A DNA stretch of 39,124 nucleotides from an uncultured bacterium (lineage in GTDB: Bacteria; RBG-13-66-14; B26-G2; WVWN01): NCBI GenBank assembly GCA_964631855.1, contig CAZWAM010000005.1, positions 17,858-56,981 of the forward strand, in the 5' to 3' direction. A program made the translations under genes and the position numbers. This document shows positions 2,739-38,944 of this stretch, in pieces (position 1 is the stretch's first letter; every line of letters starts with the position of its first letter). The notes under the pieces were generated by a model, which worked only from the letters and a program-made list of their open reading frames with translations, was not told where the DNA came from and did not search any database.

Positions 2739-2773
2739 GGGCCGGAGCGGCTCGGGCGCCTCGGAGGACCGAA

Positions 2774-3691
2774 ATGAAGAGAGTTATTCCGTTATTGGTT
2801 GCGACGTCGGTGGGTGCTTGCGCGGCTGGAGCCGCGGAACCGGGCTCTTCCGGCGCGGCGTTTCTGAAGATAGGGGTCGGCGCCCGCGCGGTCGGGATGG
2901 GCGAGGCCCAAGCCGCGCTCGCCGCGGGGCCGGAGGCGCTCTACTGGAACCCCGCGGGCCTCGCGGCCGACGACCGCCGCGCGGTATCTTTCACCCACAG
3001 CGAGTGGCTCGAGGACATCCGCTACGAATACTTGGGCTTGTCTTATCCGCTTTTCGGGTTGGGCACGGTAGGCTTCTCCGCGGGCCGCGTGAGTATGGGT
3101 AAGCTCGAAGGCCGCGACGAGCAGGGCAATCCCACGGGCGATTTCAGCGCGAGCGATATGGCGCTCTCGCTCGGCTACGCCAGGCGGCTATGGGAATTCG
3201 TCTCGTTGGGCGCCGGCGCCGAGTATATCTCCTCCAAGATCGAGAACGAGAGCGCGTCGGCCTTCGCCGGGTCCTTCGGCGCGGCGGCGGAGCTGCCTTT
3301 GCCCGGCTTGTCCGCCGGCGTCTCCGCCTCCAACCTCGGCGGCGAGATGAAGTTCATCGAGGAGGGCGACCCGTTGCCGTTCGTAGCGCGCGGCGGCCTG
3401 GCGTACCTGTTGCCCTTCGGCGGTGAGACGAACGACGTTACCGTCGCGGCGGACGCGGTGAAGTTCCGCGACCGCGACGTCGCCGTCAACGGCGGCCTGG
3501 AATATTGGTTTATGAAAACGGTCGCCGCGCGGGCCGGCTACAAGGCGAACTACGACGAGGACGGCCTTACGGGCGGCCTCGGCTTCAGGTATTCGCCCAC
3601 CGCGGCGCTGGGGCTCTTGGCGGACTACGCTTACGCCGACATGGGCGCCTTCGGCGCCACGCACCGCATTTCCGTCGGGATGCGGTTTTGA
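2774..3691 (+). CDS. PorV/PorQ-family (UPF0164) outer-membrane beta-barrel
   Basis: GGAGG SD, signal peptide, FLKIGVGARAVGMGEA, YWNPAGL, C-terminal THRISVGMRF. Confidence 0.85.
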   Translation: MKRVIPLLVATSVGACAAGAAEPGSSGAAFLKIGVGARAVGMGEAQAALAAGPEALYWNPAGLAADDRRAVSFTHSEWLEDIRYEYLGLSYPLFGLGTVGFSAGRVSMGKLEGRDEQGNPTGDFSASDMALSLGYARRLWEFVSLGAGAEYISSKIENESASAFAGSFGAAAELPLPGLSAGVSASNLGGEMKFIEEGDPLPFVARGGLAYLLPFGGETNDVTVAADAVKFRDRDVAVNGGLEYWFMKTVAARAGYKANYDEDGLTGGLGFRYSPTAALGLLADYAYADMGAFGATHRISVGMRF

Positions 3692-3730
3692 TGCCTATAT
3701 TATTAAAATTAATTAATTTGTGTATAAATG

Positions 3731-3753
3731 GACCGCCCCGCCGGGGCGGTTTT
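3731..3753 (+). terminator. intrinsic terminator
   Basis: GACCGCCCC-GCC-GGGGCGGT-TTT. Confidence 0.55.
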
Positions 3754-3846
3754 GCTTGCCGTGCGCGGGGCCGCTATGTTATATTTTCCCGGGCAGAAAG
3801 GTATACGATGCCCGTCCGCAACGGAACCGACGCGCGGGAGGGATAG

Positions 3847-5543: not shown

Positions 5544-5560
5544 GAGCGGCTTTGAGGGCG

Positions 5561-5585
5561 GCCCGCCGGCACGGCGGGTTTTATT
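5561..5585 (+). terminator. intrinsic terminator
   Basis: GCCCGCCG-GCA-CGGCGGGT-TTTATT. Confidence 0.6.
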
Positions 5586-5611
5586 AAAACGAGGCCGCCG
5601 TTTGATCGCGA

Positions 5612-13930: not shown

Positions 13931-15937
13931 GTGAAAGAATGGCGAAATAATTACGGCCGGTTCATCGGGTCCGTCGCGGGCGCGAGTTGTTTGGGCGGCA
14001 TCCTGGCCGGCGCGGGCGAGTACGTATTTGGCGCGGCGCTGGCGCGCGGCGCCTTTTGGGGTACGCCGAGGCAGTTTTTCCAATTGTCGTTTGGGGCGGA
14101 GGTTTTATGGGTGGCCGCGGTCAGTGTGCTCGTGTCTACGTTGGGGTGCTCGTTGTATTATTTTCGGGCGGCGAGGAAGGGGCGCGTGAGTCTCGTTTCG
14201 CCGGCGATATTCGTAATTTTAGTGGCGGCCTTCGGCGCCGCGACTTTTTATTCTTTGGCGACGGTCGACGTCTGGTGGTTTTACGGTAAGCCGAGAGTTG
14301 CGGTGGTAGCGGTATTCTTGTTCACGATTGCGGCGTGGTTTTGCGCGGTTTGGGGGACTTATTATATTATAAATAAAATCGTATCCCGTTCCGCCGCGGC
14401 GAAGCGTCTTTCGGTCGTCGTTTTAAGATTATTAACGCTGGCCTTATTGGCCCCGTTCGTCGTGGCCGACGTATGGGCGCTTTGGCATGCGCGCGGGGCG
14501 CCGCCGCCGCGGCCGGATATATACCTCGTCGTAATGGACGCGTTCCGCGCGGACCGGCTTAGTTGTTACGGCGCGGAACGGCGGCTGGCGCCAAACTTGG
14601 AGGAGTTCGCCGCGGATGCCGCCGTTTTCCGGGAGGCCTTCACCGTTTCGACGTGGACGAAGCCGGCCATAGTTTCGATTTTCACGGCCACTTACCCCGG
14701 CACCCACGGCGTTAACGCCCGGTATTTGGGGCTCCCGGCCGGTACGCGTACGCTGGCGGAGGTTTTGCGCGAAGGGGGTTATACGACCGTATGCGTTTCC
14801 GCAAACCCGAACGTGACCCGGCCCGCGCGGACGGCGGACGGCTTTGACGTCGTGGACAGCACCGGCGACGGGCCGATACTCGCCGCCGCGGGGCCCCCCG
14901 TATCGTGCGCCCGTCTTTTTAGAGTTTTCCCTTGGATGCGGCCGCATTTGGGGCCGCTTTGGAAATCGACGCAGGACGGCGTCGAGATGAACAGGAGGGT
15001 GAGGTTTTGGCGGCGGTTGGCAGGCGACCGGCCTAAGTTCTTTTTTATCCATTATATGGAACCTCATACGCCCAACCCTCCGCGCGCCGAGTACCTGGAC
15101 GAACTAAAACCGTTTTTGGATAAAGTCGACGAGAGCCGCGTCTGCGGAATCGAGTTGGGCAAATATTTCTTCGCCGACGTTGCGAGCGACCCCACCTTCG
15201 TCCCCGACTACGACGACGACGAGATCGCTTTGGCGCGGGCGTTGTACGACGCCGACATTCGCCTGATGGACGTCGTAATAGGGGACCTGCTCGAGGAAGT
15301 CGCTCCCGCCCCGGGGGGAGGACCCGAGCCGGTGATGGTCATTACCGCCGACCACGGCGAGGAGTTCTTGGAGCACGGGCGCTGGCTTCACGGCGCCGGC
15401 CTTCATTACGAGGTGGCGCGTATTCCGTTGCTGGTTCGCGTACCCGGTTGCCGCGCCGCGGCGCTCGAGGGCCCGGTAAATTTAATCGACGTTCCGGCGA
15501 CGTTGGTCTCGTTGGCGGGCGGCGAGGTCCCGCGCGATTGGGAGGGGTTGGATTTAACGTCGTACGTGAAGACGGGTTCGGCCTTGCCGCGTCGCGAGTT
15601 GCTTTTGGAGGGTATCCTCGAAATACTCACGCCCCCCTTCGAGGAGGGCGAAAACGCCGGGATCGAATTAAATGCCTTGGTCGCAGGAGGCTATTATTAC
15701 CTTAGGGATGAGAACGGCGAGGCGGAGTACTTGTACGACCGCGGCCGCGACCCCCGACAAGAGAACAACTTGGCGTCGGACGATAATCCTGACGATGCCG
15801 AGGAGGTGCTATCGCGCTGCCGGGACGCGTTGGCCCGCTGGAAACGGCGCGTTAGGAAAAGGGCTTTCGCGCGGGAAGAAGTCCGCCTGACGCCCGAGCT
15901 CGAGAGGCAGCTAAAGGCGTTGGGTTATATAATGTGA
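13931..15937 (+). CDS. membrane-anchored sulfatase-like hydrolase/transferase (paralog 1)
   Basis: About 5 N-terminal TMs; VMDAFRAD, TWTKPA..S.FT..YP.THG, HYMEPH, TADHGEE, HG, LKALGY. Confidence 0.88.
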   Translation: MKEWRNNYGRFIGSVAGASCLGGILAGAGEYVFGAALARGAFWGTPRQFFQLSFGAEVLWVAAVSVLVSTLGCSLYYFRAARKGRVSLVSPAIFVILVAAFGAATFYSLATVDVWWFYGKPRVAVVAVFLFTIAAWFCAVWGTYYIINKIVSRSAAAKRLSVVVLRLLTLALLAPFVVADVWALWHARGAPPPRPDIYLVVMDAFRADRLSCYGAERRLAPNLEEFAADAAVFREAFTVSTWTKPAIVSIFTATYPGTHGVNARYLGLPAGTRTLAEVLREGGYTTVCVSANPNVTRPARTADGFDVVDSTGDGPILAAAGPPVSCARLFRVFPWMRPHLGPLWKSTQDGVEMNRRVRFWRRLAGDRPKFFFIHYMEPHTPNPPRAEYLDELKPFLDKVDESRVCGIELGKYFFADVASDPTFVPDYDDDEIALARALYDADIRLMDVVIGDLLEEVAPAPGGGPEPVMVITADHGEEFLEHGRWLHGAGLHYEVARIPLLVRVPGCRAAALEGPVNLIDVPATLVSLAGGEVPRDWEGLDLTSYVKTGSALPRRELLLEGILEILTPPFEEGENAGIELNALVAGGYYYLRDENGEAEYLYDRGRDPRQENNLASDDNPDDAEEVLSRCRDALARWKRRVRKRAFAREEVRLTPELERQLKALGYIM

Positions 15938-15962
15938 GGGCCGGCGGGCGCGTAAACGCGGT

Positions 15963-17963
15963 ATGGCCTCGGCTAAGTTGAAAGATTACGGTCGCTTTAT
16001 GGGGCAGCTCGCCGGCGCGAGTATTGCCGCGGGCGTCCTCGCCGCCGCGGGCGAGCACATCCTCGGCGCGGCGTTGGGCCGGGGGCGGTTTTGGGGCGTA
16101 CCGCGGCATTTCTACCAGCTGTCGTTGGGCGTCGAGGCTCTGTGGTTGGCGGTTTTAGCCGTGGCCTTGTTCGGCGTCGCCGGCACCGCGTATTATTGGG
16201 GGATGAGGCGGAAAAGGCCGGTTCGGTTGGCGTCGCCGTCCCTCTTCGTCGTTACCGCCGCGGCCTGCGGCGTCGCGGCCTCCTATTTTTTGGCCACGGT
16301 CGACATCGTGGCCCTATACGCAAAGCCGAGGCTGGCCGCCGTCGCCGTTTGGGCGATATTCCTCGCTACGGTGGCGGCGTGGGTGGCGTTGGCCGTCGTC
16401 GCTTACAGGTTGATAAGTAGAATCCGGCCGCGCGCGGGCGTGCCGTCGGCGTTGAGCGTCGCGGTTCTGCGCGCGTTCACGTTGGCGTTGCTCCTTCCTT
16501 TCGTGGGGGCTGCGGTTTGGGGCGCGTGGCGCGCGCGGGCGCCGCGGCCCCGTAAACCGGATATTTATTTCGTCGTGATGGACGCCTTCCGCGCGGACCG
16601 GCTCGAGCCGTACGGCGCGGCGCGGCGCCTCGCCCCGGCCTTAGAGAATTTTGCGAAAGAAGGGGCGGTTTTTCGCGAAGCCTTCTCGGACTCGTCGTGG
16701 ACGAAGCCCTCCGTCGCCTCGGCCTTTACCTCTACTTCGCCCTCCACTCACGGCGTCAACGGCCTTTTTTCGGCCATACCCGGCGAGGCGGTTACGCTGG
16801 CCGAATACCTGCGCGGATACGGGTATCGGACGCTGGGCGTCTCGGCGAATCTTGAAGTCAGCCGCCAGGCGGGGATGGCCGCCGGCTTCGACATACTGGA
16901 CGGCACCACCCTCGGGCCCGTTCTCGACGCCGCCGGGCCCCCCACGTCCGCGGCGCGCTTCCTCGTGCGGTTTCCGACGGGGTCGTTGTGGCGCTCGAGC
17001 CGCGAAGGCTTATGCGTGAACAGAAGGCTCGCGTTCTGGATGCGGCTCGCGGGCGGGCCGCCCCGGTTCCTTTACATCCATTATATGGAACCCCATACGC
17101 CCAACCTTCCGCGCGCGGAGTACCTGGGCGAACTAAAACCTTTTTTGGATAAAGTCGACGAAAGGCGCGCCCGCGAAATCGAGCTCGGCAAGTACTTTTT
17201 CGCCGAGGTCGCGACGGACCCCGCCTTCGTCCCGGACTACAGCGACGACGAGCTGGGTCTGGCGCGAGCGCTGTACGACGCGGATATCCGCCGGATGGAC
17301 GTCGTGATAGCCGACCTGCTCGAGAACGTTATCCCCGCCTCGCGCCCGGACGCCGAGCCGATAATAATTATTACGGCCGACCACGGCGAGGAGTTTTTGG
17401 AACACGGCCGATGGCTCCACGGCGCAGGGTTTCACCGGGAGGTGGCGGAGATTCCTTTGATAATTAAGTTGCCCGGTTGCGCCCCGGCCGTGCTCGAGGG
17501 CCCGGTGAGTTTGGTCGACCTCGCGCCGACCGTCGCTTCGGCCGTCGGCCTTGCCGTCCCCGACGGGTGGGAGGGTTTGGACTTGACGGCCTACGCGGGG
17601 CGTGGGCAAAAGGTCCCTCGAAGGAACCTTCTTCTGGAGGGGATACAAGAATTGTCCGTCGAGGTCTCGGACCCGTCGCACCGCACCATCGAAATAAACG
17701 TATTGGTGGGTGGCGGCTGTTATTACGTCAAAGACGAGAACGCCGGGGGCGAGTACCTGTACGACCGGCGGCTGGACCCCTGGCAGGTGAACAACCTCGC
17801 CCGGGCCGGTGGGTCTCCGGGACTCGAGGCGGTCCTGGCGGAGCGGCGCGGCGAGCTCGGCCGTATGAAACGCGACGCCCGCGCGCGCGCCTTCGCCCCC
17901 GCCCGTGCTTACATCCCGCCGAGTTTGAAGAAGTCGTTGCGGGCCTTGGGTTATATTAACTGA
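15963..17963 (+). CDS. membrane-anchored sulfatase-like hydrolase/transferase (paralog 2)
   Basis: Same architecture; SWTKPSVASAFT, HYMEPH, TADHGEE, LRALGY. Confidence 0.88.
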   Translation: MASAKLKDYGRFMGQLAGASIAAGVLAAAGEHILGAALGRGRFWGVPRHFYQLSLGVEALWLAVLAVALFGVAGTAYYWGMRRKRPVRLASPSLFVVTAAACGVAASYFLATVDIVALYAKPRLAAVAVWAIFLATVAAWVALAVVAYRLISRIRPRAGVPSALSVAVLRAFTLALLLPFVGAAVWGAWRARAPRPRKPDIYFVVMDAFRADRLEPYGAARRLAPALENFAKEGAVFREAFSDSSWTKPSVASAFTSTSPSTHGVNGLFSAIPGEAVTLAEYLRGYGYRTLGVSANLEVSRQAGMAAGFDILDGTTLGPVLDAAGPPTSAARFLVRFPTGSLWRSSREGLCVNRRLAFWMRLAGGPPRFLYIHYMEPHTPNLPRAEYLGELKPFLDKVDERRAREIELGKYFFAEVATDPAFVPDYSDDELGLARALYDADIRRMDVVIADLLENVIPASRPDAEPIIIITADHGEEFLEHGRWLHGAGFHREVAEIPLIIKLPGCAPAVLEGPVSLVDLAPTVASAVGLAVPDGWEGLDLTAYAGRGQKVPRRNLLLEGIQELSVEVSDPSHRTIEINVLVGGGCYYVKDENAGGEYLYDRRLDPWQVNNLARAGGSPGLEAVLAERRGELGRMKRDARARAFAPARAYIPPSLKKSLRALGYIN

Positions 17964-25502: not shown

Positions 25503-26612
25503 ATGGCCGATATCAGGATCCCCCTCAAGGACCTAGCGGCGCAGTACCGGGCGCTGGAGGCCGAGCTCGAGCCCGCGGTCCGGGAGTTCCTCGCCTCGGG
25601 GCAGTACATACTCGGGCCGCCGGTGGAAAAGTTCGAGCGCGAGGCGGCCGACTACCTCGGCGTCGAGCATTGCGTGGGCGTCGGCTCCGGGACCGACGCG
25701 CTGCTCATCGCGCTCCGGGCGTTGGGCGTCGGCGAGGGCGACGAGGTCGTAACCACGCCGTTCACGTTCGTGGCGAGCGCGGACGTTATCGTCCGCCTGC
25801 GCGCGCGGCCGGTATTCGTTGACGTCGACCGTGAAACCCTAAATATATCGCCGGGGGCGGTAGCCGAGGCAGTTACGGAGCGAACGAAGGTGGTAATGCC
25901 GGTGCACCTCTACGGTTTGCCCGCGGATATCGCGGCCCTAGCCGCGGCCGCGCCGGGAGTTCCGATTTTGGAGGATGCGGCGCAGGCGATCGGCGGCGAG
26001 GTCGCGGGCCGCAAGGTGGGGTGCCTCGGCGCCGCGGCCGCTTTCTCGTTTTTCCCCACGAAGAACCTCGGCGCTTTCGGCGACGGCGGCCTGGTCGCGA
26101 CGGGCGACGCCGGCGTCGCGGCGCGCGCGCGGCGCTTACGCGTCCACGGCGCCGTGACGAAGAATTACCCGGAGGAGATAGGTTACAAAAGCCGCCTCGA
26201 CGGCCTGCAGGCTACGGTCCTTTCGATAAAGCTTAAACACCTCGACCGATGGGTGGCGCGGACGCGCGAGCTCGTTGGGCGGTACCGCGAGCGGCTGGCC
26301 GCGGTGGACGGCGTAGCGTTATTGGCCGAGCCGGCCAACCGTAGGCCCGCGTATCACCAATTCACGGTCCGGGCGACGCGGCGCGAGGAGCTGCGGCCCT
26401 TCCTGGGCGAACGCGGCATCGCCTCGGCGATATATTACCCGACCGCCGTTCACTTGACGCCGGCCTTCGGATATCTGGGCTACGGCGCGGGCGCGTTCCC
26501 GGAGGCTGAGGAGGCGGCGGGCGAAGTCGTATCGCTGCCCCTCTGGCCCGAGATGGCCGACGAGCAAGTGGAAGAGGTCTGCGCCACGGTGGCTGAATTC
26601 TATGGGCGGTAA
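25503..26612 (+). CDS. DegT/DnrJ/EryC1/StrS aminotransferase (WbpE/WlbC-like)
   Basis: SGTDAL, PVHLYG, EDAAQA, SFFPTKNLGAFGDGG, SRLD. Confidence 0.92.
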   Translation: MADIRIPLKDLAAQYRALEAELEPAVREFLASGQYILGPPVEKFEREAADYLGVEHCVGVGSGTDALLIALRALGVGEGDEVVTTPFTFVASADVIVRLRARPVFVDVDRETLNISPGAVAEAVTERTKVVMPVHLYGLPADIAALAAAAPGVPILEDAAQAIGGEVAGRKVGCLGAAAAFSFFPTKNLGAFGDGGLVATGDAGVAARARRLRVHGAVTKNYPEEIGYKSRLDGLQATVLSIKLKHLDRWVARTRELVGRYRERLAAVDGVALLAEPANRRPAYHQFTVRATRREELRPFLGERGIASAIYYPTAVHLTPAFGYLGYGAGAFPEAEEAAGEVVSLPLWPEMADEQVEEVCATVAEFYGR

Positions 26613-27693
26613 GGGCAGCGTAATGCTCGTAGTGGGCGCGCGGCCGCAGTTCGTGAAGGCCGCGCCGCTTCTTGCCCGGCCGCCGGAGGGGGCGGCGTGG
26701 CTGCTCGTTCATACCGGCCAGCACTACGACTACGAGATGTCGGCGGCCTTCTTCGCGGAGCTCGCCATACCGGAGCCGGCGTACAACCTCGACGTGGGGC
26801 CGCTCGCCCCCGCGGCGCAGCTGGCGGCGATGACGGGGCGGCTCGCGGACGTGATCGAGAAAGAGAGGCCGGCCGCGGCGGTGGTCGTGGGTGACACGAC
26901 TTCCACGTTGGCGGGGGCGTTGGGCGCCTCGCTATCGGCCGTGCCGTTGGCCCACGTCGAGGCGGGCATGCGCTCGTACGACTGGGCCATGCCCGAGGAG
27001 CGGAACCGCGTTTTGACGGACCGGTTGGCCGGGCTGCGGCTGTGTCCCCACGCGGCCGCGGCGGCGAACCTCGCAAAGGAAGGAATAACCGACGGCGTGA
27101 AAGTCGTGGGCGACGTGACGTACGAAGTCGCCGCGGCGGCCTACCCCGAACTCGACGCCGCGAAATATATTACGCCGTTGGGGCTCGAGGCGCGGGGTTA
27201 CGCGTACGTGACGTGCCACCGTCAGGAAAACGTCGACGTCCCGGAACGGCTCGCCGCGGTGGCGGAGGCGCTGGCCGGTTTGAATTTTCCGGTTTATTTC
27301 CCGGCGCACCCGCGGACCGCGAAGGCACTCAAGGCCGCGGGCCTTTGGAGCCCCCTCGAGGCCGCGCGGTACGTGCGCCTCGCCGAGCCGACGACGTACT
27401 TCACCAGCCTCGCTCTCGTCCGTTATGCCGCGGTCGTCATAACGGACTCGGGCGGCGTCCAGCGCGAGGCGTATCTATACGACGTACCGACGCTGACGTT
27501 GCGCGAGCGGACCGAGTGGCCGGAGACGGTGGCGGCGGCCGTCAACCGTCTGGTGGATGTTGAGCCTAAGGCCATAAGCGCGGGCGTAAAGGAGGCGTCC
27601 AGCGCGGCGAGGGCGCGCCGGCCTCGCCTCGAGCTCGTCGGCGAGCCGGCGCCGAGTATGGGCATCGCCGAGGCTCTTAGGCTTTTTATTTAA
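26602..27693 (+). CDS. wecB: non-hydrolysing UDP-GlcNAc 2-epimerase family (WecB/WbpI-like)
   Basis: VGARPQFVKAA, HTGQHYD, GDTTST, HVEAGMRS, MPEERNR, TDSGGVQRE. Confidence 0.9.
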   Translation: MGGKGSVMLVVGARPQFVKAAPLLARPPEGAAWLLVHTGQHYDYEMSAAFFAELAIPEPAYNLDVGPLAPAAQLAAMTGRLADVIEKERPAAAVVVGDTTSTLAGALGASLSAVPLAHVEAGMRSYDWAMPEERNRVLTDRLAGLRLCPHAAAAANLAKEGITDGVKVVGDVTYEVAAAAYPELDAAKYITPLGLEARGYAYVTCHRQENVDVPERLAAVAEALAGLNFPVYFPAHPRTAKALKAAGLWSPLEAARYVRLAEPTTYFTSLALVRYAAVVITDSGGVQREAYLYDVPTLTLRERTEWPETVAAAVNRLVDVEPKAISAGVKEASSAARARRPRLELVGEPAPSMGIAEALRLFI

Positions 27694-27749: not shown

Positions 27750-27823
<74 letters not shown>

Positions 27824-27941: not shown

Positions 27942-28874
27942 ATGATGGCAAGGTTTTATAAAGTAGTTTTGATATTGGCGCTCGCGGCCCCGGCGGCGTT
28001 CGGCGGTTGGTCGGTCGTGGAGACAACGGGCGAGCATCTAAGCGACGTACAGATGATTTCGGCCAGCGACGGGTGGGCCGTCGGCGTAGACGGCCAAATT
28101 TTACGCTACAACGGCTCGTCGTGGCGGGCGGTGTCGTCGCCCACGACGCGCGATCTCAACGCCATAAAGATGCTCTCGGCGACGAGCGGTTGGGCGGTGG
28201 GCCACAAGGGGACGATAATACGCTACAACGGCACGCGTTGGACGCTCGTAGGAAGCCCGACCGATAAGCACTTATATTCGGTGGATTTCGCGGACCCGGC
28301 CAACGGCTGGGCCGGCGGCCGCAACGGCGTATTGCTCCGCTACAGCGCCGGTTACTGGCGCGCCGCGGCCAGCCCGACGGCCAGGCATATCAAAGGTATC
28401 GACATGTTGGCGGGTAATTTGGGTTGGCTCGTGGGGGACGCGGGCGTAATTCACCGTTACAACGGCGCGAGCTGGCTGAGCCAGGCGTCCGGTACGAACC
28501 GCGACTTGAAGGACGTCGCTATGTACAACGCGAGCCTGGGCTACGCTGTCGGGACGTACGAGACGGTATGCAGGTACAACGGTACGCGTTGGACAAGGAT
28601 CCACCAGGGCCCGGTGATAACGGGCTTGAACGCCGTGTATGTTGTGAACGCGAGTAACATATGGGCCGTGGGGGGCCAAGGGCTCGCGCTCCGCTACAAC
28701 GGGTACGCGTGGTCGTATAGCGACACCACCGTCACGGTAACGCTCAACGGCGTCCATTTCGTTAACGCGCTGGACGGCTGGGCCGTCGGCAACGGCGGTT
28801 ACATCTTGCGTTATACGAGCGAGACGGCCGTTTCGCCGGCGTCGCTCGGGCGGGTCAAGGCGCTGTTCAAATAA
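27942..28874 (+). CDS. secreted YCF48-like 7-repeat beta-propeller with C-terminal PASLGRVKALFK tag
   Basis: AAGGGGGT SD; signal peptide AFG; about 40-aa repeats L..V....GWAVG..G.ILRYNG..W. Confidence 0.85.
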   Translation: MMARFYKVVLILALAAPAAFGGWSVVETTGEHLSDVQMISASDGWAVGVDGQILRYNGSSWRAVSSPTTRDLNAIKMLSATSGWAVGHKGTIIRYNGTRWTLVGSPTDKHLYSVDFADPANGWAGGRNGVLLRYSAGYWRAAASPTARHIKGIDMLAGNLGWLVGDAGVIHRYNGASWLSQASGTNRDLKDVAMYNASLGYAVGTYETVCRYNGTRWTRIHQGPVITGLNAVYVVNASNIWAVGGQGLALRYNGYAWSYSDTTVTVTLNGVHFVNALDGWAVGNGGYILRYTSETAVSPASLGRVKALFK

Positions 28875-28894
28875 GAAGTTCGTGTCATATGCCG

Positions 28895-28922
28895 AAGAGC
28901 CGGCCTGCGAGGGCCGGTTTTT
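28895..28922 (+). terminator. intrinsic terminator
   Basis: AAGAGCCGGCCT-GCGA-GGGCCGGTTTTT. Confidence 0.75.
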
Positions 28923-29022
28923 AATTAAGGCCGGGGGCGGTTTTATTCGCGGCCGGTTGCTTTGGCCGTTGCAATTCGCGCGAAGGTGTCTTTTAATGGT
29001 GGGCGCAAGGCGCGACGGCGTA

Positions 29023-30570
29023 ATGTTAAAGGGATTCGGCTACCGGCTCGAGAGACTGTCGCCCGCGAGGCTGAGCCTGGCGCTCGCCGGCGTTTTCGCC
29101 GCTTCCCACGTCGTTTATTATTTATTGGGGATTCGTTTCGACGGCACGCCCCTTTTGTGGTATTGGCAGTATTTGGACCCGGAGCTTTTAAGGAATAAGT
29201 TGTGGGAGAGCGTTTTCTATCTGCACAGTCAGCCGCCTTTGTTTAATTTATTTCTGGGCATAGTCTTGAAAGTTTCGCGCGGCGACGGGCGGACGATTTT
29301 TCAAGGGGTCCACCTCGCCGCGGGCTTGACGTTGTACCTATCGCTCTTTTGGTTGCAGCTTCGCCTCGGCGTTTCGCGCGGCGTTGCCGTTGGGTTGAGC
29401 ACGCTATTCCTGCTAAGCCCCTCATTTATTTTATACGAACACTTTTTGTTTTACACGTTCCTCCTTGCAGCCTTGATTACGCTATCGGCTTTGCTGTTCT
29501 ACGAGGTATTGGTACGGCGGCGGACGTGGGCCGTCGCGGCGTTTTTCCTCTCCATATTTTTAATTTGCGGCATACGCCACGTATTTCATATCGCGTATTA
29601 CCTGCTCGCCGCCGCGTTCCTGGCCGCGGCCTGCGCCGGCGCGCGGAGGAAGGTCCTGTTGGCCGCCGCGGTGCCTTTTTTGGTACTTTTTTCTTTTTAC
29701 GCCAAAAACTTTGTGTTATTCGGCCAATTCTCGGCGAGCTCCTGGACCGGTATGAACTTCTGGCAAATGACCGGCACGAACTTGACGCTGCGCGAGAGAG
29801 AGCTTTTGCTCGCCGAGGGCAGGCCGTCGGAGGCGGCCTTGGTGCCACCTTTTTCGGCCGTACGTGATTATCCGGCCGGCTGCGCGGACGTGTCGCGCTT
29901 CCCGGACGTCGAGGCGCTGACGCAGGCCTATAAGTCGACCGGCCCCCATAACTACAACCACCTCGCGTACGTGGCCGTCTCGCGCGAATATTTAAACGAC
30001 TCGTTGTACGTAATGAAGCGTTTTCCCGAGGCTTACTTCAGGGGCCTTTTGAGGTCTTGGTTTATATATTTTAAATCGAGCAGCGATCACGTGAGCGGCG
30101 TCCGGTTCTTGGACGAAACCGGGAATCTGCGCCGCATTTCATTTTTGAACGACGTCTACGATTATGCGTTTTTTGGGCGGGTTTTTATTCGGCCCCTCTC
30201 GCGGGGTATCAGCTCGATTTTTTTATTTAAGGGGGAGGAGAAGGTTTACTTGTTCCTGTGGCTCGGCCTGCCGGTGTTGCTCTTCTACGGCTTCGGCTTG
30301 GCTTTGCGAAGGGGCGGGCCGGGCGCGCGCGGCCTCGAGCGCGACCAACGCCTTACGGTCCTGTATATTTGCCTCAACATCTTGTACGTGGCGCTCGTCT
30401 CAAATATGTTCTCGTGGGCGGAGAACAACCGCATGAGGTTTCCGACGGACCCGTTGTACGTCGCGCTGCTGGGCCTTTTTATTCAGCGAGTTTTGTTGGG
30501 GCGGCGCCGCCTTAGCGGCCGCTTTCGCTCCTCGAGCGACGGCCCTTCCACTTCAGCCGCAGGCCGTTGA
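29023..30570 (+). CDS. multi-pass membrane protein, GT-C-like
   Basis: WQYLD..LL, HSQPPLFN, about 10 TMs, large loop, ENNRMRF; start 29023 or 28996. Confidence 0.7.
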   Translation: MLKGFGYRLERLSPARLSLALAGVFAASHVVYYLLGIRFDGTPLLWYWQYLDPELLRNKLWESVFYLHSQPPLFNLFLGIVLKVSRGDGRTIFQGVHLAAGLTLYLSLFWLQLRLGVSRGVAVGLSTLFLLSPSFILYEHFLFYTFLLAALITLSALLFYEVLVRRRTWAVAAFFLSIFLICGIRHVFHIAYYLLAAAFLAAACAGARRKVLLAAAVPFLVLFSFYAKNFVLFGQFSASSWTGMNFWQMTGTNLTLRERELLLAEGRPSEAALVPPFSAVRDYPAGCADVSRFPDVEALTQAYKSTGPHNYNHLAYVAVSREYLNDSLYVMKRFPEAYFRGLLRSWFIYFKSSSDHVSGVRFLDETGNLRRISFLNDVYDYAFFGRVFIRPLSRGISSIFLFKGEEKVYLFLWLGLPVLLFYGFGLALRRGGPGARGLERDQRLTVLYICLNILYVALVSNMFSWAENNRMRFPTDPLYVALLGLFIQRVLLGRRRLSGRFRSSSDGPSTSAAGR

Positions 30571-31739: not shown

Positions 31740-33704
31740 TTACGGCCCGGGTGACAATTCCCGTACCGCTTCGAAAGTGAAGTCGTCGCTGTTAATCGAT
31801 ACCGCGTCGAAATATAAAGGGGAAGCGGCCCGAACGTCGAATTGTAGCAAGAAGGGGTTTTTACTCGCGAAGCGAAGGCGGTAAGGCCGGTAATCTTCGG
31901 AGGCTACTACCTCTTTGGCCCTCCGGTGGACAATAAAGGAGGAGGGGTCTTTTGCGGAAATGACGCGGGCTGCGATCGTGGCGTGGCAGGACGCGTTGGG
32001 GTCTGCGCGCCGGAGAAGGAATACGAGTCCGTATTCGCCGGGCGGGTAGATATATCCGCGCGAAGGCGGATGGTGTAAGTGGTTTTTGACTAAGTTGGCG
32101 CGGCCGTCGTGCGCGCGGGGGTCGGCTACGAACCTTTTGCCCCCCGGCGCCCAGCACTGCCACTCCTCGACGGTCCCGTACCAGGCGCGAAACAAATCCT
32201 CGTAGTTACGGTTACCTTCGCCCTTCTCAAAGTAAGCGTAGTCGCCGTTGATGTCGACGGGCGCGAGGCCCCACGTTTCGGCCTTCCTTATTAAATCGGC
32301 CAGTTCCGTAGGCGGGTGGAACCGGCGCCCGACCAATAGCGCCTCCGGCTCCGCCGGTATGTCGCCGTACTCGATGGGATAATATATATAAATAAAGGGC
32401 CGTTGCGCGAGGTGGGCTACGAAGACGTCGTCTGCGCATACAGGAATATTGCGAGGTACGCGCGTTAACGCGCCGGCGAGCGCTTTTTCGTGGGCGGTTG
32501 GGAAGGCGGCCGAGACGGTGGGTCGGTAGTAGCGACCGGCGAAGGCGATAATAAAGAGGACTTGCAAGGCGACGGCCAACACGCTCCCGGCGTTAATCAA
32601 GAAGCGCCGCGTTTGACTCGGGTCGGCCCGCACGAGGCGCCTGAGGCCCAGCGCCGCGGCGCCGTAAACAAACGGCAATATCGAGAGGGGATATTGCCAT
32701 CCGATTTGGAAGACGGTGTGCGTACTTGTTAACGCGGGAACGGCAAGCGGCGTCGCCGTCGTTACCAAAGCCGCACCGCCGGCGGGCAGAAAGGCGACGA
32801 CGGGGAGGACGAGCGCCCCGATATAACCGCCTTTGGCCGCTAGTACTTGGGGAGATAGCAGCGCGCCCTCGCCGCGCGAGGCGAGGTCTTTAAAGTAACC
32901 CGAAATGTGTAACGGCGTACCGGGAGGCGCGTACGTCAACCTGGGATAGAGGAAACAGCAAACGCCGCCGAAGTATGCCGCCAATAAGGCCGCGGCGATT
33001 AAACCGGCACGGCGCCGGCCCGCGGCGAAGCCGCCGTATAATGCGAGGGGGACGGCGTGAAGCGCTAAGTCGTCCTGCGCGACCGCTAAGAGCGCCGTGC
33101 AGGCTAAGCCGGCACGAAATTTCTTGTGGCTAAAGAAGTAAAACGCCGCGAGGACCAGGGGGACGGCCAGGGAGCGGGGGTGAAAATCGTAGAAGTTGGC
33201 GCCGTGGAGCGGCGGCGATAAAGCGAAGCTGGCCGCGAGGGCTGCGGCGGGCCAACGCGGCCCGGCTTGGGGTTTGGCGATAATATAGATAAGGGGAATG
33301 CCGCCGGCGATGAAAAGCGTTTGGAGGGGTAAGAGGTACGCCGGGTCGCGGAATATATAAGTGAAGGGGGCGAACGCGGCGAGGAGCGGCGCGCAATGGT
33401 TTATAAATGTCTCGTTCGGGAGCGCGGATTGCCTGAAGAAATAACCCCGGCCGAACTGGTAGATGGCGTTGGCGTAATAGCCGAGGTCGAGGCCGTGAGT
33501 CGCCATGCCGTAATGGCGCGCCAGCGTCAAGGCGGAAAAGACTACGAAGTACGTTAAGGTTAAGGCCCAGACGACGGCTTCGGGCGCGGGTGCTTTTAGG
33601 CGCAGTCTGTTGCGGAACGCGGCTAAGGCCGCATAAATCGCGGCGACGGCGGACGCGAGGACCGAGAGAACCAAGGCTTCTTGTATCGCGACGTTTATAG
33701 GCAC
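31740..33704 (-). CDS. DUF2079-like GT-C membrane protein with C-terminal beta-sandwich domain
   Basis: DLGYYANAIY, NHCAPLL, NFYDFHP, WQYPLSI; GGGAGG SD. Confidence 0.8.
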   Translation of the reverse strand: MPINVAIQEALVLSVLASAVAAIYAALAAFRNRLRLKAPAPEAVVWALTLTYFVVFSALTLARHYGMATHGLDLGYYANAIYQFGRGYFFRQSALPNETFINHCAPLLAAFAPFTYIFRDPAYLLPLQTLFIAGGIPLIYIIAKPQAGPRWPAAALAASFALSPPLHGANFYDFHPRSLAVPLVLAAFYFFSHKKFRAGLACTALLAVAQDDLALHAVPLALYGGFAAGRRRAGLIAAALLAAYFGGVCCFLYPRLTYAPPGTPLHISGYFKDLASRGEGALLSPQVLAAKGGYIGALVLPVVAFLPAGGAALVTTATPLAVPALTSTHTVFQIGWQYPLSILPFVYGAAALGLRRLVRADPSQTRRFLINAGSVLAVALQVLFIIAFAGRYYRPTVSAAFPTAHEKALAGALTRVPRNIPVCADDVFVAHLAQRPFIYIYYPIEYGDIPAEPEALLVGRRFHPPTELADLIRKAETWGLAPVDINGDYAYFEKGEGNRNYEDLFRAWYGTVEEWQCWAPGGKRFVADPRAHDGRANLVKNHLHHPPSRGYIYPPGEYGLVFLLRRADPNASCHATIAARVISAKDPSSFIVHRRAKEVVASEDYRPYRLRFASKNPFLLQFDVRAASPLYFDAVSINSDDFTFEAVRELSPGP

Positions 33705-33725
33705 GGGGCCTCCCTCGACCTCGGT

Positions 33726-33836
33726 ATTCTATAATCGCCCGGTCGGCTTCGCAATACTATAAATCTTGTAAGTCCGGATTTTGGCTTTGGGTATGTATCG
33801 CGAGTTCTTGACGGCGAGGCCGGCGCGTGTTAGATT
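33726..33836. promoter_or_regulatory. divergent sigma70 promoter pair
   Basis: Minus: TTGCGA(33754-33749), 17 bp, TAGAAT; plus: TTGACG(33808-33813), 17 bp, TAGATT with extended TG. Confidence 0.6.
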
Positions 33837-33875
33837 TTGGGCGTCCGCTCAGGGCTAAAACCTTGGGAGGTAGTA

Positions 33876-34781
33876 ATGACCGAGCGATTCGTCAAAGCCG
33901 CAGCGGTAATAGTCCTAACGGTTGCGTGTGGCGGCGGCGGGCCCGGGCCGGAAGAAGGACCTGCGCCTTGGCGGCCCGTCCATAGCCCCACGACGAAGGA
34001 TATAAATGCCCTCTGGGTGATAGCCGAGGATGACATCTGGGCCTGCGGCGCCAGCGGCAACATATTGCAATACGACGGCTACGAGTGGCGCCTCGACATC
34101 ACGGCGCCCGCGCCCGACTTTTTCGACGTTCAATTCGTTTCGCCGGCGCAAGGATGGGTTTGCGGCAAGGACGGTTGGGTCGGCCGCCGCGACGGCGGCG
34201 AATGGAGCCGCGTGCCCGGGAATGTGCGTACAAACGACCTCCACGCGTTGCACGCCCACGGCGCGATGGAGGCTTGGTTCTGCGGCAGCCGCGGCGTTGT
34301 CCTCCACTACCTGAACGGCGAGTGGAAGGACGAGTCGCCGGGTATCGATGAAGACCTCCACGGCATCTGGGTAGTCGACCAGGACCGGGGCTGGCTCGCG
34401 GGCGATAACGGCCGCATACTCAGAAGGTCGAACGGCACATGGGTCCCGGTTACGGGCCCGGTCGAGGCACATTATCGCTGCGCGTTCTTCGTAGCCGACG
34501 ACGAGGGCTGGTTCGGCGCTACGGACGGCTACGTCGTTCACCTCAAGGGGGGCGGCTTTTCCAAGACCCGTCTCCCGAGCCCGGAGACCGTTACGGGCCT
34601 TTACTTCAAAAGCGACGGCCGCGGCTACGCCGTGACCCGGGCCGGGAATGTATATACCTATTCGCTCAAGGGCGGCTGGCAATCGTGGGGCGGTCACAAC
34701 ATGCCGCTTTTCGACGTCTCGTTCGCGGGCGAAGACGAGGGCTGGGCCGTCGGCGCGAAAGGTACTATTCTCAGGCACTGA
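33876..34781 (+). CDS. YCF48-like beta-propeller lipoprotein
   Basis: GGGAGGT SD; lipobox TVAC; same repeat type as 27942..28874. Confidence 0.82.
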   Translation: MTERFVKAAAVIVLTVACGGGGPGPEEGPAPWRPVHSPTTKDINALWVIAEDDIWACGASGNILQYDGYEWRLDITAPAPDFFDVQFVSPAQGWVCGKDGWVGRRDGGEWSRVPGNVRTNDLHALHAHGAMEAWFCGSRGVVLHYLNGEWKDESPGIDEDLHGIWVVDQDRGWLAGDNGRILRRSNGTWVPVTGPVEAHYRCAFFVADDEGWFGATDGYVVHLKGGGFSKTRLPSPETVTGLYFKSDGRGYAVTRAGNVYTYSLKGGWQSWGGHNMPLFDVSFAGEDEGWAVGAKGTILRH

Positions 34782-34842
34782 CGGCTATCGGTAGATACGT
34801 TCGAGCACGTCGGCTGAGCCGGGACGGTCTAAGGTTTAGGCG

Positions 34843-36207
34843 ATGGTCTCCTTAACGCGCGGACCTGTGCGAGAAATCCTTTTTGTCGCAGCGTTCTTGG
34901 TAGCGACGTCCCTGGTGTGGGCGTCGTTTATAATTGTTATCGGCGGGTATCCGCTCCCGAGCGACCAGGCCGAGTACAGCCTTGCGGGCCAGAGGCTGGC
35001 CGCCGGCTTCGGCCTGACGGACCGGCGCGGCATGCCGTACGTACACACCCATCCGCCTTTTTACCCGATTTTTTTAGGCGCGGTTTACGCGTTGGGAGGG
35101 GGCGAGGCGGCGGTGCGGTGGGTACAGCTGGCGTTGGCGCTCCTCACCTTGATTTTAGTTTCCGTGACGGCGCGGCGCGTTTTCGGCGCCGGCGTCGCCC
35201 GGGCGACGCTGCTCGCGGGCGGCGCTTATCTCCCCACGGCCTTTTACGTCACGCTATTGCTATCCGAGGTGCTTTTCACGTTCTTTCTCGTATTGGGGGT
35301 TTACCTTTTACTCGCGGGATCGGAACGCGATCGCCGGGGGGGGTGGCTTAACCTGGTCGCCGGCGTCACGTTCGGCGTCGCGGGGTTGACGCGCGGCGTC
35401 GCGTTAGTGGCCGCTTTTGCAATTGCCGTCTTAATCTTGGCGAGAGGGGGGATTCCTGGGCGGCGGCGGTGGGTCCTGGCCGCGGCCTTCGCGGTAGGCG
35501 TCGCGACGGCGGTATTGCCGTGGGGCGCCTACGTTTACGGCAAGACGGGCCGCGTGGTGCTGGTGGATACGAAGAGCGCCCGGATCTTGCACCGCGGCAA
35601 CAACCCCGGCACGCCGTTACACCACGCCTGGGATATCGTTGACGGGACCGCCGAATACGTCGTCCCGCCGGAGGTCGTCGGCGCGGGTAACGTTTACGAT
35701 CGGTCTCGGGTCCTGGCTGCGGCGGCACTCGACTACATGGCCGCCCATCCCCTCCAAACCTTTCTCCGGTTCGGGTCGAAGTTCGCCGACATGTGGGAGG
35801 TGGAGCGGCTTTTCGTAGGCTGTTGGCGCCAGGGCTTACTCCCGAACGCGTCGGCGCCTTGGGTATATATCTTTATTGTGGCCGAGGTAGCGGCCTCGGT
35901 CGCGGCGCTCATGGTTTTTTGGGCCTCGGTGATATTAATGCCCAAGAGCCTCTGGCGGCGGCTCACGCTTGCCGTAGTGTTGTGTACGTCGTTCGCGTAC
36001 GCCATAACGATCGCGCACCCGCGGTACAACTACCCGCTGATGGTCCTCGGCGCGCCCGCCTTGGGGTACTTCTTCGCCGAGGTGGTCCCCCGTTTTAGGT
36101 TGGGTGCGTATTCCCGCCGGCGGCTAGCGCTCGCGGCCGGCGCCGTCGCGGTACTCTTGTTGATATGGGCGAGGATGGTTTGGCTGTACGTCACGCGCGG
36201 CAGCTAG
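34843..36207 (+). CDS. GT-C/ArnT (GT39-like) glycosyltransferase
   Basis: SDQAEY, HPPFYP.FL, LLSE, GNNP, HPRY. Confidence 0.82.
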   Translation: MVSLTRGPVREILFVAAFLVATSLVWASFIIVIGGYPLPSDQAEYSLAGQRLAAGFGLTDRRGMPYVHTHPPFYPIFLGAVYALGGGEAAVRWVQLALALLTLILVSVTARRVFGAGVARATLLAGGAYLPTAFYVTLLLSEVLFTFFLVLGVYLLLAGSERDRRGGWLNLVAGVTFGVAGLTRGVALVAAFAIAVLILARGGIPGRRRWVLAAAFAVGVATAVLPWGAYVYGKTGRVVLVDTKSARILHRGNNPGTPLHHAWDIVDGTAEYVVPPEVVGAGNVYDRSRVLAAAALDYMAAHPLQTFLRFGSKFADMWEVERLFVGCWRQGLLPNASAPWVYIFIVAEVAASVAALMVFWASVILMPKSLWRRLTLAVVLCTSFAYAITIAHPRYNYPLMVLGAPALGYFFAEVVPRFRLGAYSRRRLALAAGAVAVLLLIWARMVWLYVTRGS

Positions 36208-36251
36208 CCGTTTTGCGCGTTACTATGGATTGGGTTTAGTTTACAGGGTGG

Positions 36252-37601
36252 TTGCGAAATTTGGCGAGTACGGCGAAGTTTTTTTTGTTACTCGGCTTAG
36301 CCCTCGTCGTTCAGTTGGCCTTTGTCTTGGCCGTGGGCGACGGGCCGCTAAACGCCGACGAGACGGAGTACGTGAACGGGGCCAAGCGCCTCGCCGGTGG
36401 CCTGGGTCTTACGGCGCCGGACGGCCAGCTCTACGTCCACCGCCATCCGCCGGGATATGTAGCCTTCGTGGCGGCGATATTTTACGCGGGGGGCGGCGTA
36501 TTGGCGGTTCGGTTAGTGCAGGCCGTGGTCGCGGTCCTGACGCTGGCGGTGGCGTACGGAACGGCCCGGGAGGAATTCGGCTCGAGGACGGCGACAACCG
36601 CCTTGCTGGCCGGCGCGCTGTACCTGCCCGCCGCTTACTATTCTACCAAGGTATTAACGGAAGCGCCTTTCACGTTCGCGCTCGTCTTGGGTATATACCT
36701 GTTGGCGCGCGGGACGCGGGGCGCGCCGCGTTACCGGTGGCTCGCGTTCGCCGGCGTAACCTTCGGCGCCGCGGCCCTTGTGCGGTCGGTGGCGTTTCCG
36801 GCGGCGCTGGCGCTCACGGCGTACGTGGCGCTGGGGCGGGACGGCTCGAGGCGCGCGCGGCTGGCGGGGGCGGCGACCTTCGCCTGCGGCCTGCTCGTCG
36901 CGTTGGCGCCGTGGTCGGGGTATGTCTTCTCGCGGACCGGCCACGTAGTCGCGACGGACACGAACGGCTCGGCGGTGTTATATATTGGGAATAACCCCCG
37001 GGCGCCGTACCACCATACGTGGAAGGCGCTGGGTGACCCGGCGTGTTGCGCGCCGCTGCTCGAAGTGGCGGCCGCGGGCGAGGACGGCTTCCGCGTCGCG
37101 GCCGAGTACCGGCGGTTGGCTCTCGATTACATCTTTAAGCACCCGGCGCAGACGGCGCTCCGGTCCGCGGGCCGTTTTCTCGATATGCTCGAGCCGGAGC
37201 GCCTGTTCGCGGCGTCGTACGCCGCCGGCTTGATCCCGGGCTTACCGCGCGGCGCGGCCTGGCCGGTGGTCGCGCTCGAGCCGGCCGCGGACGCCGCGGC
37301 GCTCGTATTGTGCGCGTTGGGCTTGATGCTTATGCCGGCGGGGCGGCTGCGCGGCATCCTCGGTGTGTTGTTCGTCGTCGTCTTCGTCGTCCACGGCGCG
37401 ACGATAGCGTACCCCCGGTACCACGTGCCGCTGGTGTTGGCGGCGCTGGCGGCGGTGGGCTACGCGCTGACGGCGGCCTTGCCGGCGCTGCGAGCGCGAC
37501 GCTTGTCGAGGCGCCAATGGGCCGCCGTAATCGTCGTCGCCGCGGCCTTCCTTGCCTCCTGGACGCGGATGCTTTTGTTATACGTTATCCAGGGGGGCTA
37601 A
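36252..37601 (+). CDS. GT-C/ArnT (GT39-like) glycosyltransferase, tandem paralog
   Basis: ADETEY, HPPGY, LTE, GNNP, YPRY. Confidence 0.82.
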   Translation: MRNLASTAKFFLLLGLALVVQLAFVLAVGDGPLNADETEYVNGAKRLAGGLGLTAPDGQLYVHRHPPGYVAFVAAIFYAGGGVLAVRLVQAVVAVLTLAVAYGTAREEFGSRTATTALLAGALYLPAAYYSTKVLTEAPFTFALVLGIYLLARGTRGAPRYRWLAFAGVTFGAAALVRSVAFPAALALTAYVALGRDGSRRARLAGAATFACGLLVALAPWSGYVFSRTGHVVATDTNGSAVLYIGNNPRAPYHHTWKALGDPACCAPLLEVAAAGEDGFRVAAEYRRLALDYIFKHPAQTALRSAGRFLDMLEPERLFAASYAAGLIPGLPRGAAWPVVALEPAADAAALVLCALGLMLMPAGRLRGILGVLFVVVFVVHGATIAYPRYHVPLVLAALAAVGYALTAALPALRARRLSRRQWAAVIVVAAAFLASWTRMLLLYVIQGG

Positions 37602-37939: not shown

Positions 37940-38734
37940 TTATCGGAACAACGCTTTAACCCGGCCCACGGAGGCCGGCGTTACGGCCGGGTATAAGACG
38001 GGGCAGTGTATAATGAGTATGTGGGGGTCCGTAATGGTCCTGGAGTCAACCCAGAGGTATTCGCCGTAGTAGTCGCTGACGTACGGTACGTGCACGGCGG
38101 TGATCGGCGGGAACGACGTTATCAACGAGCCGCGGGTGTCGTAGGCGTAGTAATAAGGGTGTTGGCCGCTTCTCGGGATCCAAATAAACGCGTTGCCGTA
38201 GTCCCACGTGACGTCGGACCACGGAGTAGTTTCGGGTTTGAAGGAGTCGATAAAGCTACCCGTTGGCGTGTAACGCAAAACGTGGTTGCCGTAGATGCCT
38301 ATGACGACGCCCATCAGTATCGTTTTGATACCGCCCGGTTCGGCGCGCGTAGTTTCGAAATCGAAGTCCAAGCAGTATTGAGTAATTATAGGCATCGACG
38401 AATAAATACTGCCCGTCGCCTCGTCGCAGCGGTGGAGCCACACGGGCGCTAAGCCTTGGTTGTGCATCCACAAGTACTGGCCTCTCTCGAAAGCTAAGCC
38501 GCGGATGGTGCCGCTGACGGCCGGTTTGTACGAGCTGACGATCTTCCCCGTCCAACGCTCGAGGCGGTAAAGGTAGAACGGGCCCGTGGAGTAGGCGTAT
38601 AAATAACGGTCGCCCACGGCTAAGGCGTAAACGTTTCCAGGGGGCGTTCGGTACGAGGCGACTATCTCCCCCAAATAACCGCACGCCCCGCCGGCGGCTG
38701 CTAACAGGATACCCAACGCTATCGCTTTTTTCAT
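37940..38734 (-). CDS. secreted repeat (probable beta-propeller) protein with C-terminal PASVGRVKALFR tag
   Basis: AGGAGG SD; signal peptide; five G-[S/E/K]-I-V/Y-x-S-[F/Y]-like repeats. Confidence 0.82.
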   Translation of the reverse strand: MKKAIALGILLAAAGGACGYLGEIVASYRTPPGNVYALAVGDRYLYAYSTGPFYLYRLERWTGKIVSSYKPAVSGTIRGLAFERGQYLWMHNQGLAPVWLHRCDEATGSIYSSMPIITQYCLDFDFETTRAEPGGIKTILMGVVIGIYGNHVLRYTPTGSFIDSFKPETTPWSDVTWDYGNAFIWIPRSGQHPYYYAYDTRGSLITSFPPITAVHVPYVSDYYGEYLWVDSRTITDPHILIIHCPVLYPAVTPASVGRVKALFR

Positions 38735-38944
38735 CTCGGTCCCTCCTAGAAGTATTTTCGACCACGAAGAATATAATATCATTTTTTAGAATTATTGGCA
38801 AGTTTTGCGCGGCGTTTCCGTTGCAGTTCGGCTTAGGCTTTATCCCTCCCCCGTTACGACGTTGGCGGGGGTGAAGGCGAGGGCCGCGGGGGCGGTCATT
38901 GCCCAAGCAATAAAAAACTTAGTTAATTCGACCGTCCTTTCGCA

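Follow-up and report, generated by a model that had tools for sequence, protein, structure and literature searches.

Two genes in a single stretch of DNA from an uncultured bacterium encode apparently exported proteins whose bodies differ and whose last 15 residues, hereafter the tail, are nearly the same. The question raised by this locus is what so short an ending does on unrelated proteins. The stretch, which we call the window, is 39,124 nucleotides long (G000:C5:17858-56981, G000 being the source genome, 2.49 Mb in 173 contigs and 91.8% complete); its DNA was found in marine-sediment metagenomes, and the sole RNA run contains 5% of the sampled words. An original prediction, made from the letters alone, had described the tail as a tag shared by two dissimilar secreted proteins. 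The tag is indeed there: the tails of these proteins, P0001 and P0002 (Table 1), are identical at 12 of 15 positions, the second gene lying on the minus strand (the plus strand at its coordinates is full of stops and is non-coding). The bodies are dissimilar too, as that of P0001 is a seven-bladed beta-propeller matching PF14870 (Ycf48/BNR-like; 1.2e-14 in the Pfam scan), whereas P0002 has a five-bladed propeller to which Pfam and NCBIfam scans assign no family, and the tail-trimmed bodies fall into separate BLAST clusters.

On exported proteins, the tail forms a real module, under strong selection and found strictly at the C-terminus. Its core motif, G[RK][VIL]K[ASG][LIVM][FYW], occurs 106 times in the 4,970,688 residues of the six-frame translation of the genome, while the same motif in reversed order occurs once, and the tail is thus not a product of chance. 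In 103 of the 106 occurrences, the motif is followed by exactly one residue and a stop; two occurrences are cut by a contig end, one has three residues after the motif, and none is internal. The stop codons found after tails are TAA (52), TAG (38), and TGA (14). A scan of the proteome had been expected to bring up many carriers, and around 100 were found, so that the tag is not limited to the two window proteins: 92 open reading frames (ORFs) of at least 60 residues terminate in the motif in a first scan, and a relaxed form of the tail ends 103 of 2089 crude gene calls (roughly 5%). The count of 106 is a lower bound, because variants escape the regular expression (g1811, g0620, g0987, and g1031, with ends such as ...SLGLIKAIYR, ...SLGCIRALYR, ...SLGKVKALLR, and ...SLGRVKTLFR).

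Conservation extends beyond the residues used for the search. The logo of 96 tails reads [AG]-V-x-P-[AT]-S-[LVFI]-G-[RK]-[VI]-K-A-[LIV]-[FY]-x. The invariance of the glycine, the lysine, and the aromatic residue is partly due to construction (as all three belong to the selecting expression), but three more positions, all outside it, are conserved as well: V(-14) in 81 of the 96 tails, P(-12) in 83, and S(-10) in 92. At the last position, residues vary and often carry a charge (R in 49 tails, K in 21, Y in 10, and E in 5). At the DNA level, the third codon positions vary widely (entropy 0.9-2.0) whereas the first two positions of the G and K codons never change, indicating that conservation acts on the peptide.

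Carriers are diverse in their bodies. After removal of the last 16 residues, the 87 carriers of at least 100 residues and without N-gaps form 19 clusters with no BLAST relation to each other (BLASTP, E<1e-5), comprising 28, 17, 13, 10, 3, 2, and 2 members plus 12 singletons. Pfam scans of 10 cluster representatives returned NHL, PD40, cupredoxin, Omp28, Big_5, InhA-like MAM, and Vgb_lyase-like matches, three representatives being without family. Nearly all carriers had been predicted to possess signal peptides, and all those that can be judged have a signal-peptide-like N-terminus. More precisely, 74 of the 106 carriers pass a hydrophobic-window heuristic, and 12 more gain such an N-terminus if one in-frame TGA is read through (T083 being doubtful among these). 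The others consist of eight stop-to-stop fragments shorter than 100 residues, seven contig-cut genes, three N-gapped genes, and two last cases, one at a contig edge with its hydrophobic region visible and one scoring 1.79 for a threshold of 1.9. None of the 106 carriers examined by this heuristic looks cytoplasmic. As judged from their sequences, the N-termini are of the non-lipoprotein signal-peptide type, and carriers should therefore cross the inner membrane by Sec.

These data bear on the idea that the tail has no sorting role at all and is a conserved structural or oligomerisation motif, or a module hitch-hiking on gene duplication. Most carriers do belong to four expanded paralogue families (28, 17, 13, and 10 members), and many tail copies are consequently not independent. 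Yet the same tail stands on 12 singleton bodies and in 19 clusters in all, it is exclusive to signal-peptide proteins, and no other stretch is as conserved, with bodies diverging down to 20-36% identity and synonymous sites scrambled. In the P0002 family, for example, bodies are 20-72% identical, and the only invariant columns of a 32-sequence alignment (including database homologues) are the G and K of the tail. In addition, the tail lies outside the fold and recurs in other phyla on other bodies (e.g., cohesin-like and FN3-like). We thus regard the absence of a sorting role as most improbable.

The carriers with an in-frame TGA deserve a separate mention. Four of them show a U-x-x-C, thioredoxin-like context (in the Omp28-like family and a Big_5 protein) and six a conserved C-U context (S-U in one case) in the 'YMRIT' family. 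Such carriers are found at L180 (G000:C1:34299-34913), L182 (G000:C2:71797-72324), L181, and L197, and also on G000:C66, and the genome encodes tRNA-SeC as well as selB (over cut-off). They look like candidate exported selenoproteins. A genome-wide recoding of TGA was rejected, since 14 tails are followed by a TGA stop.

Structure predictions place the tail outside both propellers. With its family alignment, AlphaFold2 models P0002 as an all-beta protein (mean predicted local distance difference test, pLDDT, 87; predicted TM-score, pTM, 0.83) whose last strand spans residues 238-243; residues 250-264, i.e. the tail, form a coil with pLDDT <50. Foldseek relates this body to beta-propellers, the best TM-scores being to the five-bladed glutaminyl-cyclase type 3mbr (TMq 0.65, TMt 0.72) and 2iwa. 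The P0001 model (39 homologues; pLDDT 92.7) has an N-terminal helix at residues 2-14, a first strand beginning at residue 21, seven blades, and a last strand at residues 287-293, while nearly all of residues 296-310 fall under pLDDT 50, a weak helix being predicted at 302-309. In both models the tail begins 2-7 residues past the last strand of the body, and its low confidence there indicates that it is no element of either fold, in line with the expectation that it would not be an integral part of a propeller.

The proposal that the tag is an amphipathic helix found no support. The helical hydrophobic moment (100 deg) of the last 10 residues is 0.38, versus 0.38 +- 0.19 for shuffled sequences (49% of shuffles reach it), and AlphaFold2 gives a low-confidence helix in P0001 and a coil in P0002. 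The beta-type moment is somewhat higher than in shuffles (0.59 versus 0.38, reached by 16% of them). This matters for the reading in which the tail anchors proteins peripherally to the membrane without any machinery, as a short basic peptide located at the membrane interface, as in PBP5 or MinD. Several observations would suit such an anchor, namely the net charge of the last 10 residues (+2.67) combined with L/V, V/I, L, and F/Y hydrophobic residues, the weak helix of P0001, the periplasmic type of part of the cargo, and the replacement of the tail by lipid anchors in paralogues (see below). But the helical moment is no higher than that of shuffles, the hydrophobic part covers only ~9 residues, and lipid binding requires neither an invariant G and K, nor a conserved P and S, nor a fixed spacing of one residue to the C-terminus that holds in 19 families and in several phyla. 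Such an anchor is quite unlikely.

How related proteins without the tail end provides the main argument for a role in localisation. In the crude gene calls of the genome, searched by two BLASTP rounds, 20 members of the NHL family carry the tail and none of these has a lipobox; among the 13 tail-less members, four match the lipobox regular expression and two more do so by eye (L-A-G-I-S-C or F-A-L-S-C), the rest being fragments or spurious. In the BNR family, two members have the tail, eight have an end resembling the C-terminal domain (CTD) of the type IX secretion system (T9SS), and nine have neither, about six of which show a Cys directly after the hydrophobic region (by eye). Among the best 120 of 314 P0001 homologues with E<=0.001, seven end in the tail and two in a near-variant; others end in PF18962 CTDs (P0051 and P0077), a CTD-like end (P0113), transmembrane-plus-basic ends, DUF11, or other modules. 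This choice of anchor, between tail, lipobox, and CTD, points to the tail being a localisation module.

Two side observations concern the same families. The tail-less NHL paralogues g1396, g1408, g1541, g1944, g1945, and g0780 have lipoprotein-type signal peptides and often adjoin tailed paralogues. Moreover, many Ycf48-like homologues of P0001 from other lineages (P0021-P0034, P0046, P0057, and P0106) end in Y-[LV]-P-[LIV]-[VI]-[LF]-[KR]-x(0-2), which may possibly be another undescribed C-terminal signal.

We consider it probable (roughly 0.6) that the tail is an envelope sorting or anchoring signal, read at its free C-terminus by a dedicated receptor, although all that lies past Sec export is inferred. 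Under this model, carriers would cross the inner membrane by Sec, the tail hanging unstructured off the folded body. A dedicated envelope protein would then bind the tail in register with the free carboxylate, and the carrier would be tethered at the outer membrane, either on its periplasmic face or on the surface. In related proteins, a lipid anchor or a T9SS CTD would do the same job.

A strict register to the free C-terminus is also used by C-terminus-reading proteases and PDZ-type domains, and the tail could instead be a removable propeptide or a degron for a tail-specific protease, acting in maturation or turnover rather than location, with the conserved small residues P-[AT]-S as a potential cleavage site. 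This is very unlikely in our opinion. The last residue is variable and often charged, unlike the hydrophobic ends favoured by PDZ/Tsp-type readers, no protease gene is tied to carriers in the neighbourhoods of 79 tagged genes, and the exchange of the tail for lipoboxes and CTDs would be left unexplained.

The distribution of the tail was followed across genomes. A strict DNA pattern of the tail was detected in 10/10 other genomes of the same family (41-101 matches per genome, and 72 in the source genome), in 2/2 genomes of a second family (3 and 9 matches), and in 1/2 further genomes of the class (8 matches), but in 0/10 genomes of the other class of the phylum and 0/16 elsewhere (reversed control, 0). 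With a relaxed pattern, [ST]-x-G-x-[IV]-K-[ASGT]-x-[FY]-x-stop, 24/25 genomes of the phylum (Coatesbacteria by NCBI label) are positive with a control of 0, the number of matches per genome being 66-164 in the family, 29-36, 21, and 13 in the three other families of the class, and 0-7 in the other class, where the spelling is [ST]-[WF]-G-x-[IV]-K-[AG]-L-Y. Among the public genome matches listed, carriers are labelled Candidatus Coatesbacteria (including the closed genome CP070633.1), 'Candidatus Zixiibacteriota', and Krumholzibacteriia; two metagenome-assembled genomes with the latter label have 31 and 18 matches to the relaxed pattern, with a control of 0. In a survey of 401 genomes, 11 of the 376 genomes outside the phylum, from seven families, have at least four matches (4-41 each), while control matches never exceed three per genome. 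Tails from outside the phylum end for instance in ...ESETWGRVKALYR, ...ESSWGSIKALYR, and ...PSTWGQIKSIFK, on bodies that are cohesin-like or without assigned family. Finally, a single-copy FN3-like exported protein of ~130 residues ending in TWG[SG]IKAMFR recurs in several families, one relative being labelled KSB1.

In the source genome, the tail is thus one lineage's spelling, with L/V/F in place of W, of a more widespread ending, [ST]-W-G-x-[IV]-K-x-[LM]-[YF]-x-COOH, and the WGxIK-type tails of related candidate phyla, which the original prediction had loosely called to mind, are real and homologous in form. The claim of a candidate new sorting signal consequently stands in part: neither a Pfam or NCBIfam model nor a paper describing the tail was found, but the tail found here is one lineage's version of an ending shared by several phyla, and its sorting function is inferred. 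In the proteins scanned (2 + 2 + 6), matches to Pfam and NCBIfam models never extend into the tail, and a tail-only NCBIfam scan returned nothing, although HMMER filters may miss very short models. The ESM Atlas, queried with the C-terminal 25 residues of P0001, yielded no usable match, and literature searches by motif string and by topic returned only unrelated papers (motifs inside supplements could escape such searches).

The source genome has a canonical T9SS. It encodes SprA (262 bits, with neighbours) and a PorU-like gene that stays under the cut-off (241.7 bits) and precedes a PorV-like barrel gene, i.e. the SprA and PorU/PorV combination expected of genomes with type A CTDs, and 33 TIGR04183 CTDs, ending in ...AAKRMVVVR. 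PorV/PorQ-family barrels are numerous, with six over cut-off and four weaker, the best-scoring one being encoded in the window (Table 1). The leading candidate for the putative receptor would be a T9SS-associated component, for example one of these six barrels. For the recognition by a PorV-like machine that the original prediction had suggested, what the data provide is co-occurrence of the tail with T9SS.

In a stronger version, the tail would itself direct secretion by T9SS, replacing the ~75-residue CTD in minimal form and taking proteins through SprA to the surface, where a PorV/PorQ-type barrel would hold them. Besides the T9SS genes of the genome and its six barrels, this version can draw on the CTDs of P0001-homologous bodies, both elsewhere and in paralogues of the genome, and on the distribution of SprA (E<=1e-10), which is present in 25/25 genomes of the phylum and 123/376 others, including all 11 of the tail-rich outsiders. 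It also gains from locus L164, where a tailed single-copy gene (3595-4134, plus strand), whose product ends in TWGSIKAMFR, lies between PorD-like and PorQ-like genes (2533-3522, plus strand, and 4664-5659, minus strand). However, in two other families (L165 and L166) the neighbours of the tailed single-copy gene are unrelated and the PorD/PorQ neighbourhood is missing, and the co-occurrence with SprA is confounded by phylogeny. Furthermore, profile comparison reveals no similarity of the tail to the CTD, a coil of 15 residues cannot form an Ig-like fold, and the 33 canonical CTDs coexist with the tails on much larger proteins. We therefore hold a true T9SS signal to be unlikely, if not negligibly so. 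A truncated T9SS CTD, considered as the identity of the tail, was rejected on the basis of the profile comparison given below.

Several points weigh against an envelope signal with a dedicated receptor. The evidence extends as far as Sec export, the receptor, any cleavage, and the localisation being putative; even for export, the signal-peptide heuristic is crude and permissive, as it also flags 39% of all crude genes. At the profile level, tails do not resemble the T9SS CTDs of the genome (hhalign probability 0.3%, 95 tails versus 30 CTDs). About 110 SprA-positive genomes of the survey have no tail, and the co-occurrence with T9SS may only reflect shared ancestry. Among 232 neighbours of the 79 tagged genes of the genome, no recurrent non-tagged partner family was found, the recurring neighbours being tail-less NHL lipoproteins, CTD proteins, and tail variants missed by the regular expression. 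Profiling, which covered the PorU-adjacent barrel only, of the six barrels, gave equally good matches in 18 tail-positive and 20 tail-negative SprA-positive genomes. Lastly, the cupredoxin and thioredoxin-like UxxC cargo is of periplasmic type, so that tethering inside the periplasm fits better than surface display. In addition, counts of PorV-like barrels do not track tail number in five genomes, and a complex prediction of the PorU-adjacent PorV-like barrel with P0002 returned no answer (score 0.00), which counts neither way on binding.

What would follow from a role of the tail in sorting or anchoring? The tail would then label ~100 genes here, as well as tens of genes in representatives of several phyla about which little is known; nearly all of the products are annotated 'hypothetical'. 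A simple C-terminal rule would assign such proteins to the envelope at once and would give a handle for finding the receptor, and a very small portable tag would join the short list of bacterial signals for surface or envelope display. The tail also bears on an open T9SS question, namely the role of the many PorV/PorQ-family barrels in non-Bacteroidota genomes. As a wider and more doubtful proposal, for which we claim distinctly less than even odds, the [ST]-[WLFV]-G-x-[IV]-K-x-[LM]-[YF]-x-COOH tail may define an unrecognised sorting pathway of T9SS-bearing (FCB-type) bacteria. In such a pathway, an outer-membrane receptor dedicated to the task, perhaps a specialised member of the PorV/PorQ barrel family, would read a label of 15 residues, lacking both a domain and a transmembrane helix, at its free C-terminus. 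Up to ~5% of the proteome would be tethered to the envelope in this way, which would add a third mode of attachment to those by lipoprotein anchor and by CTD.

Table 1. Coordinates, within the window, of the two tailed genes, their tails, and the barrel gene
Feature	Position	Strand	Description
P0001 gene	27942..28874	+	310 residues: signal peptide, 7-bladed Ycf48/BNR-like beta-propeller, C-terminal tail, stop
P0001 signal peptide (approximate)	27942..28004	+	Residues 1-21, MMARFYKVVLILALAAPAAFG; hydrophobic-window heuristic 2.81
P0001 tail	28827..28871	+	15 residues, AVSPASLGRVKALFK; stop 28872-28874
P0002 gene	37940..38734	-	264 residues from Met at 38734: signal peptide, 5-bladed beta-propeller, tail, stop; an upstream ATG at 38782 would give 280 residues (37940-38782)
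P0002 tail	37943..37987	-	15 residues, AVTPASVGRVKALFR; stop 37940-37942
PorV/PorQ-family outer-membrane barrel gene	2849..3691	+	Context only; NF033709, 214 bits (cut-off 90), match at 2849-3688 = G000:C5:20706-21545

The window is also rich in envelope-glycan genes (13931-17963, 25503-27693, and 31740-37601), including two tandem sulfatase-family (PF00884) membrane enzymes, a DegT aminotransferase, a UDP-GlcNAc 2-epimerase, DUF2079, and two PMT_2 glycosyltransferases. It also encodes valS, and a tRNA-Met at 27750-27823, just upstream of P0001. An ORF of 562 residues at 28882-30570 has no match in Pfam and NCBIfam scans.

Compared with known C-terminal systems, the tail recalls several and coincides with none. 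Short C-terminal motifs with lineage spellings, on many unrelated signal-peptide proteins, are also typical of LPXTG/sortase, PEP-CTERM/exosortase, and GlyGly-CTERM/rhombosortase. These signals are tripartite, whereas the tail, as anticipated for LPXTG and PEP-CTERM, has neither a transmembrane helix nor a basic cluster after one: P-x-S is followed only by L-G-[RK]-[VI]-K-A-L-[FY]-x, with no hydrophobic run. Sortase (PF04203) and exosortase (PF09721) have 0 matches in the 91.8%-complete genome, rhombosortase not having been searched. The beta-signal of outer-membrane barrel proteins (C-terminal ...x-F) shares with the tail an extreme C-terminal position, an aromatic residue near the end, and, to some extent, a raised beta-type moment. 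However, the barrels of this genome end in a terminal F while the aromatic residue of the tail is at -2 in 103/106 cases, and tail carriers are soluble propellers and sandwiches, not barrels.

PBP5 and MinD have C-terminal peripheral membrane anchors, short basic peptides lying in the membrane interface. Like the amphipathic anchors of PBP5/6 and MinD, the tail is very short, basic, at the extreme C-terminus, and replaces a lipid or transmembrane anchor. These anchors conserve amphipathicity and not sequence, though, whereas the tail is near-invariant in sequence with a helical moment at chance level.

The closest parallel is with the T9SS type A CTD (TIGR04183/PF18962). Both modules occupy the C-terminus of proteins that are exported by Sec and come from many families without relation to each other, both finish with hydrophobic residues and a basic one, both occur in the same genomes (those with at least four tail matches all bear SprA in our sample), and they are interchangeable on homologous bodies. 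They differ in their nature, which the original prediction had rightly set apart. T9SS CTDs are folded domains of ~75 residues, defined by an Ig-like beta-sandwich, whereas the tail has 15 residues, modelled as a low-confidence coil or weak helix, and NCBIfam and Pfam scans of P0001 and P0002 yield no match to the CTD profile of ~72 positions. Cargo differs as well, with a median length of 264 residues for tail carriers and 652 residues for 30 CTD-like ends in the crude gene calls. Overall, the tail is strictly C-terminal, present on many unrelated families, confined to signal-peptide proteins, lineage-restricted, and exchanged with other anchors, which are the features of the operational definition of a C-terminal sorting signal that reportedly comes from Haft's comparative-genomics practice.

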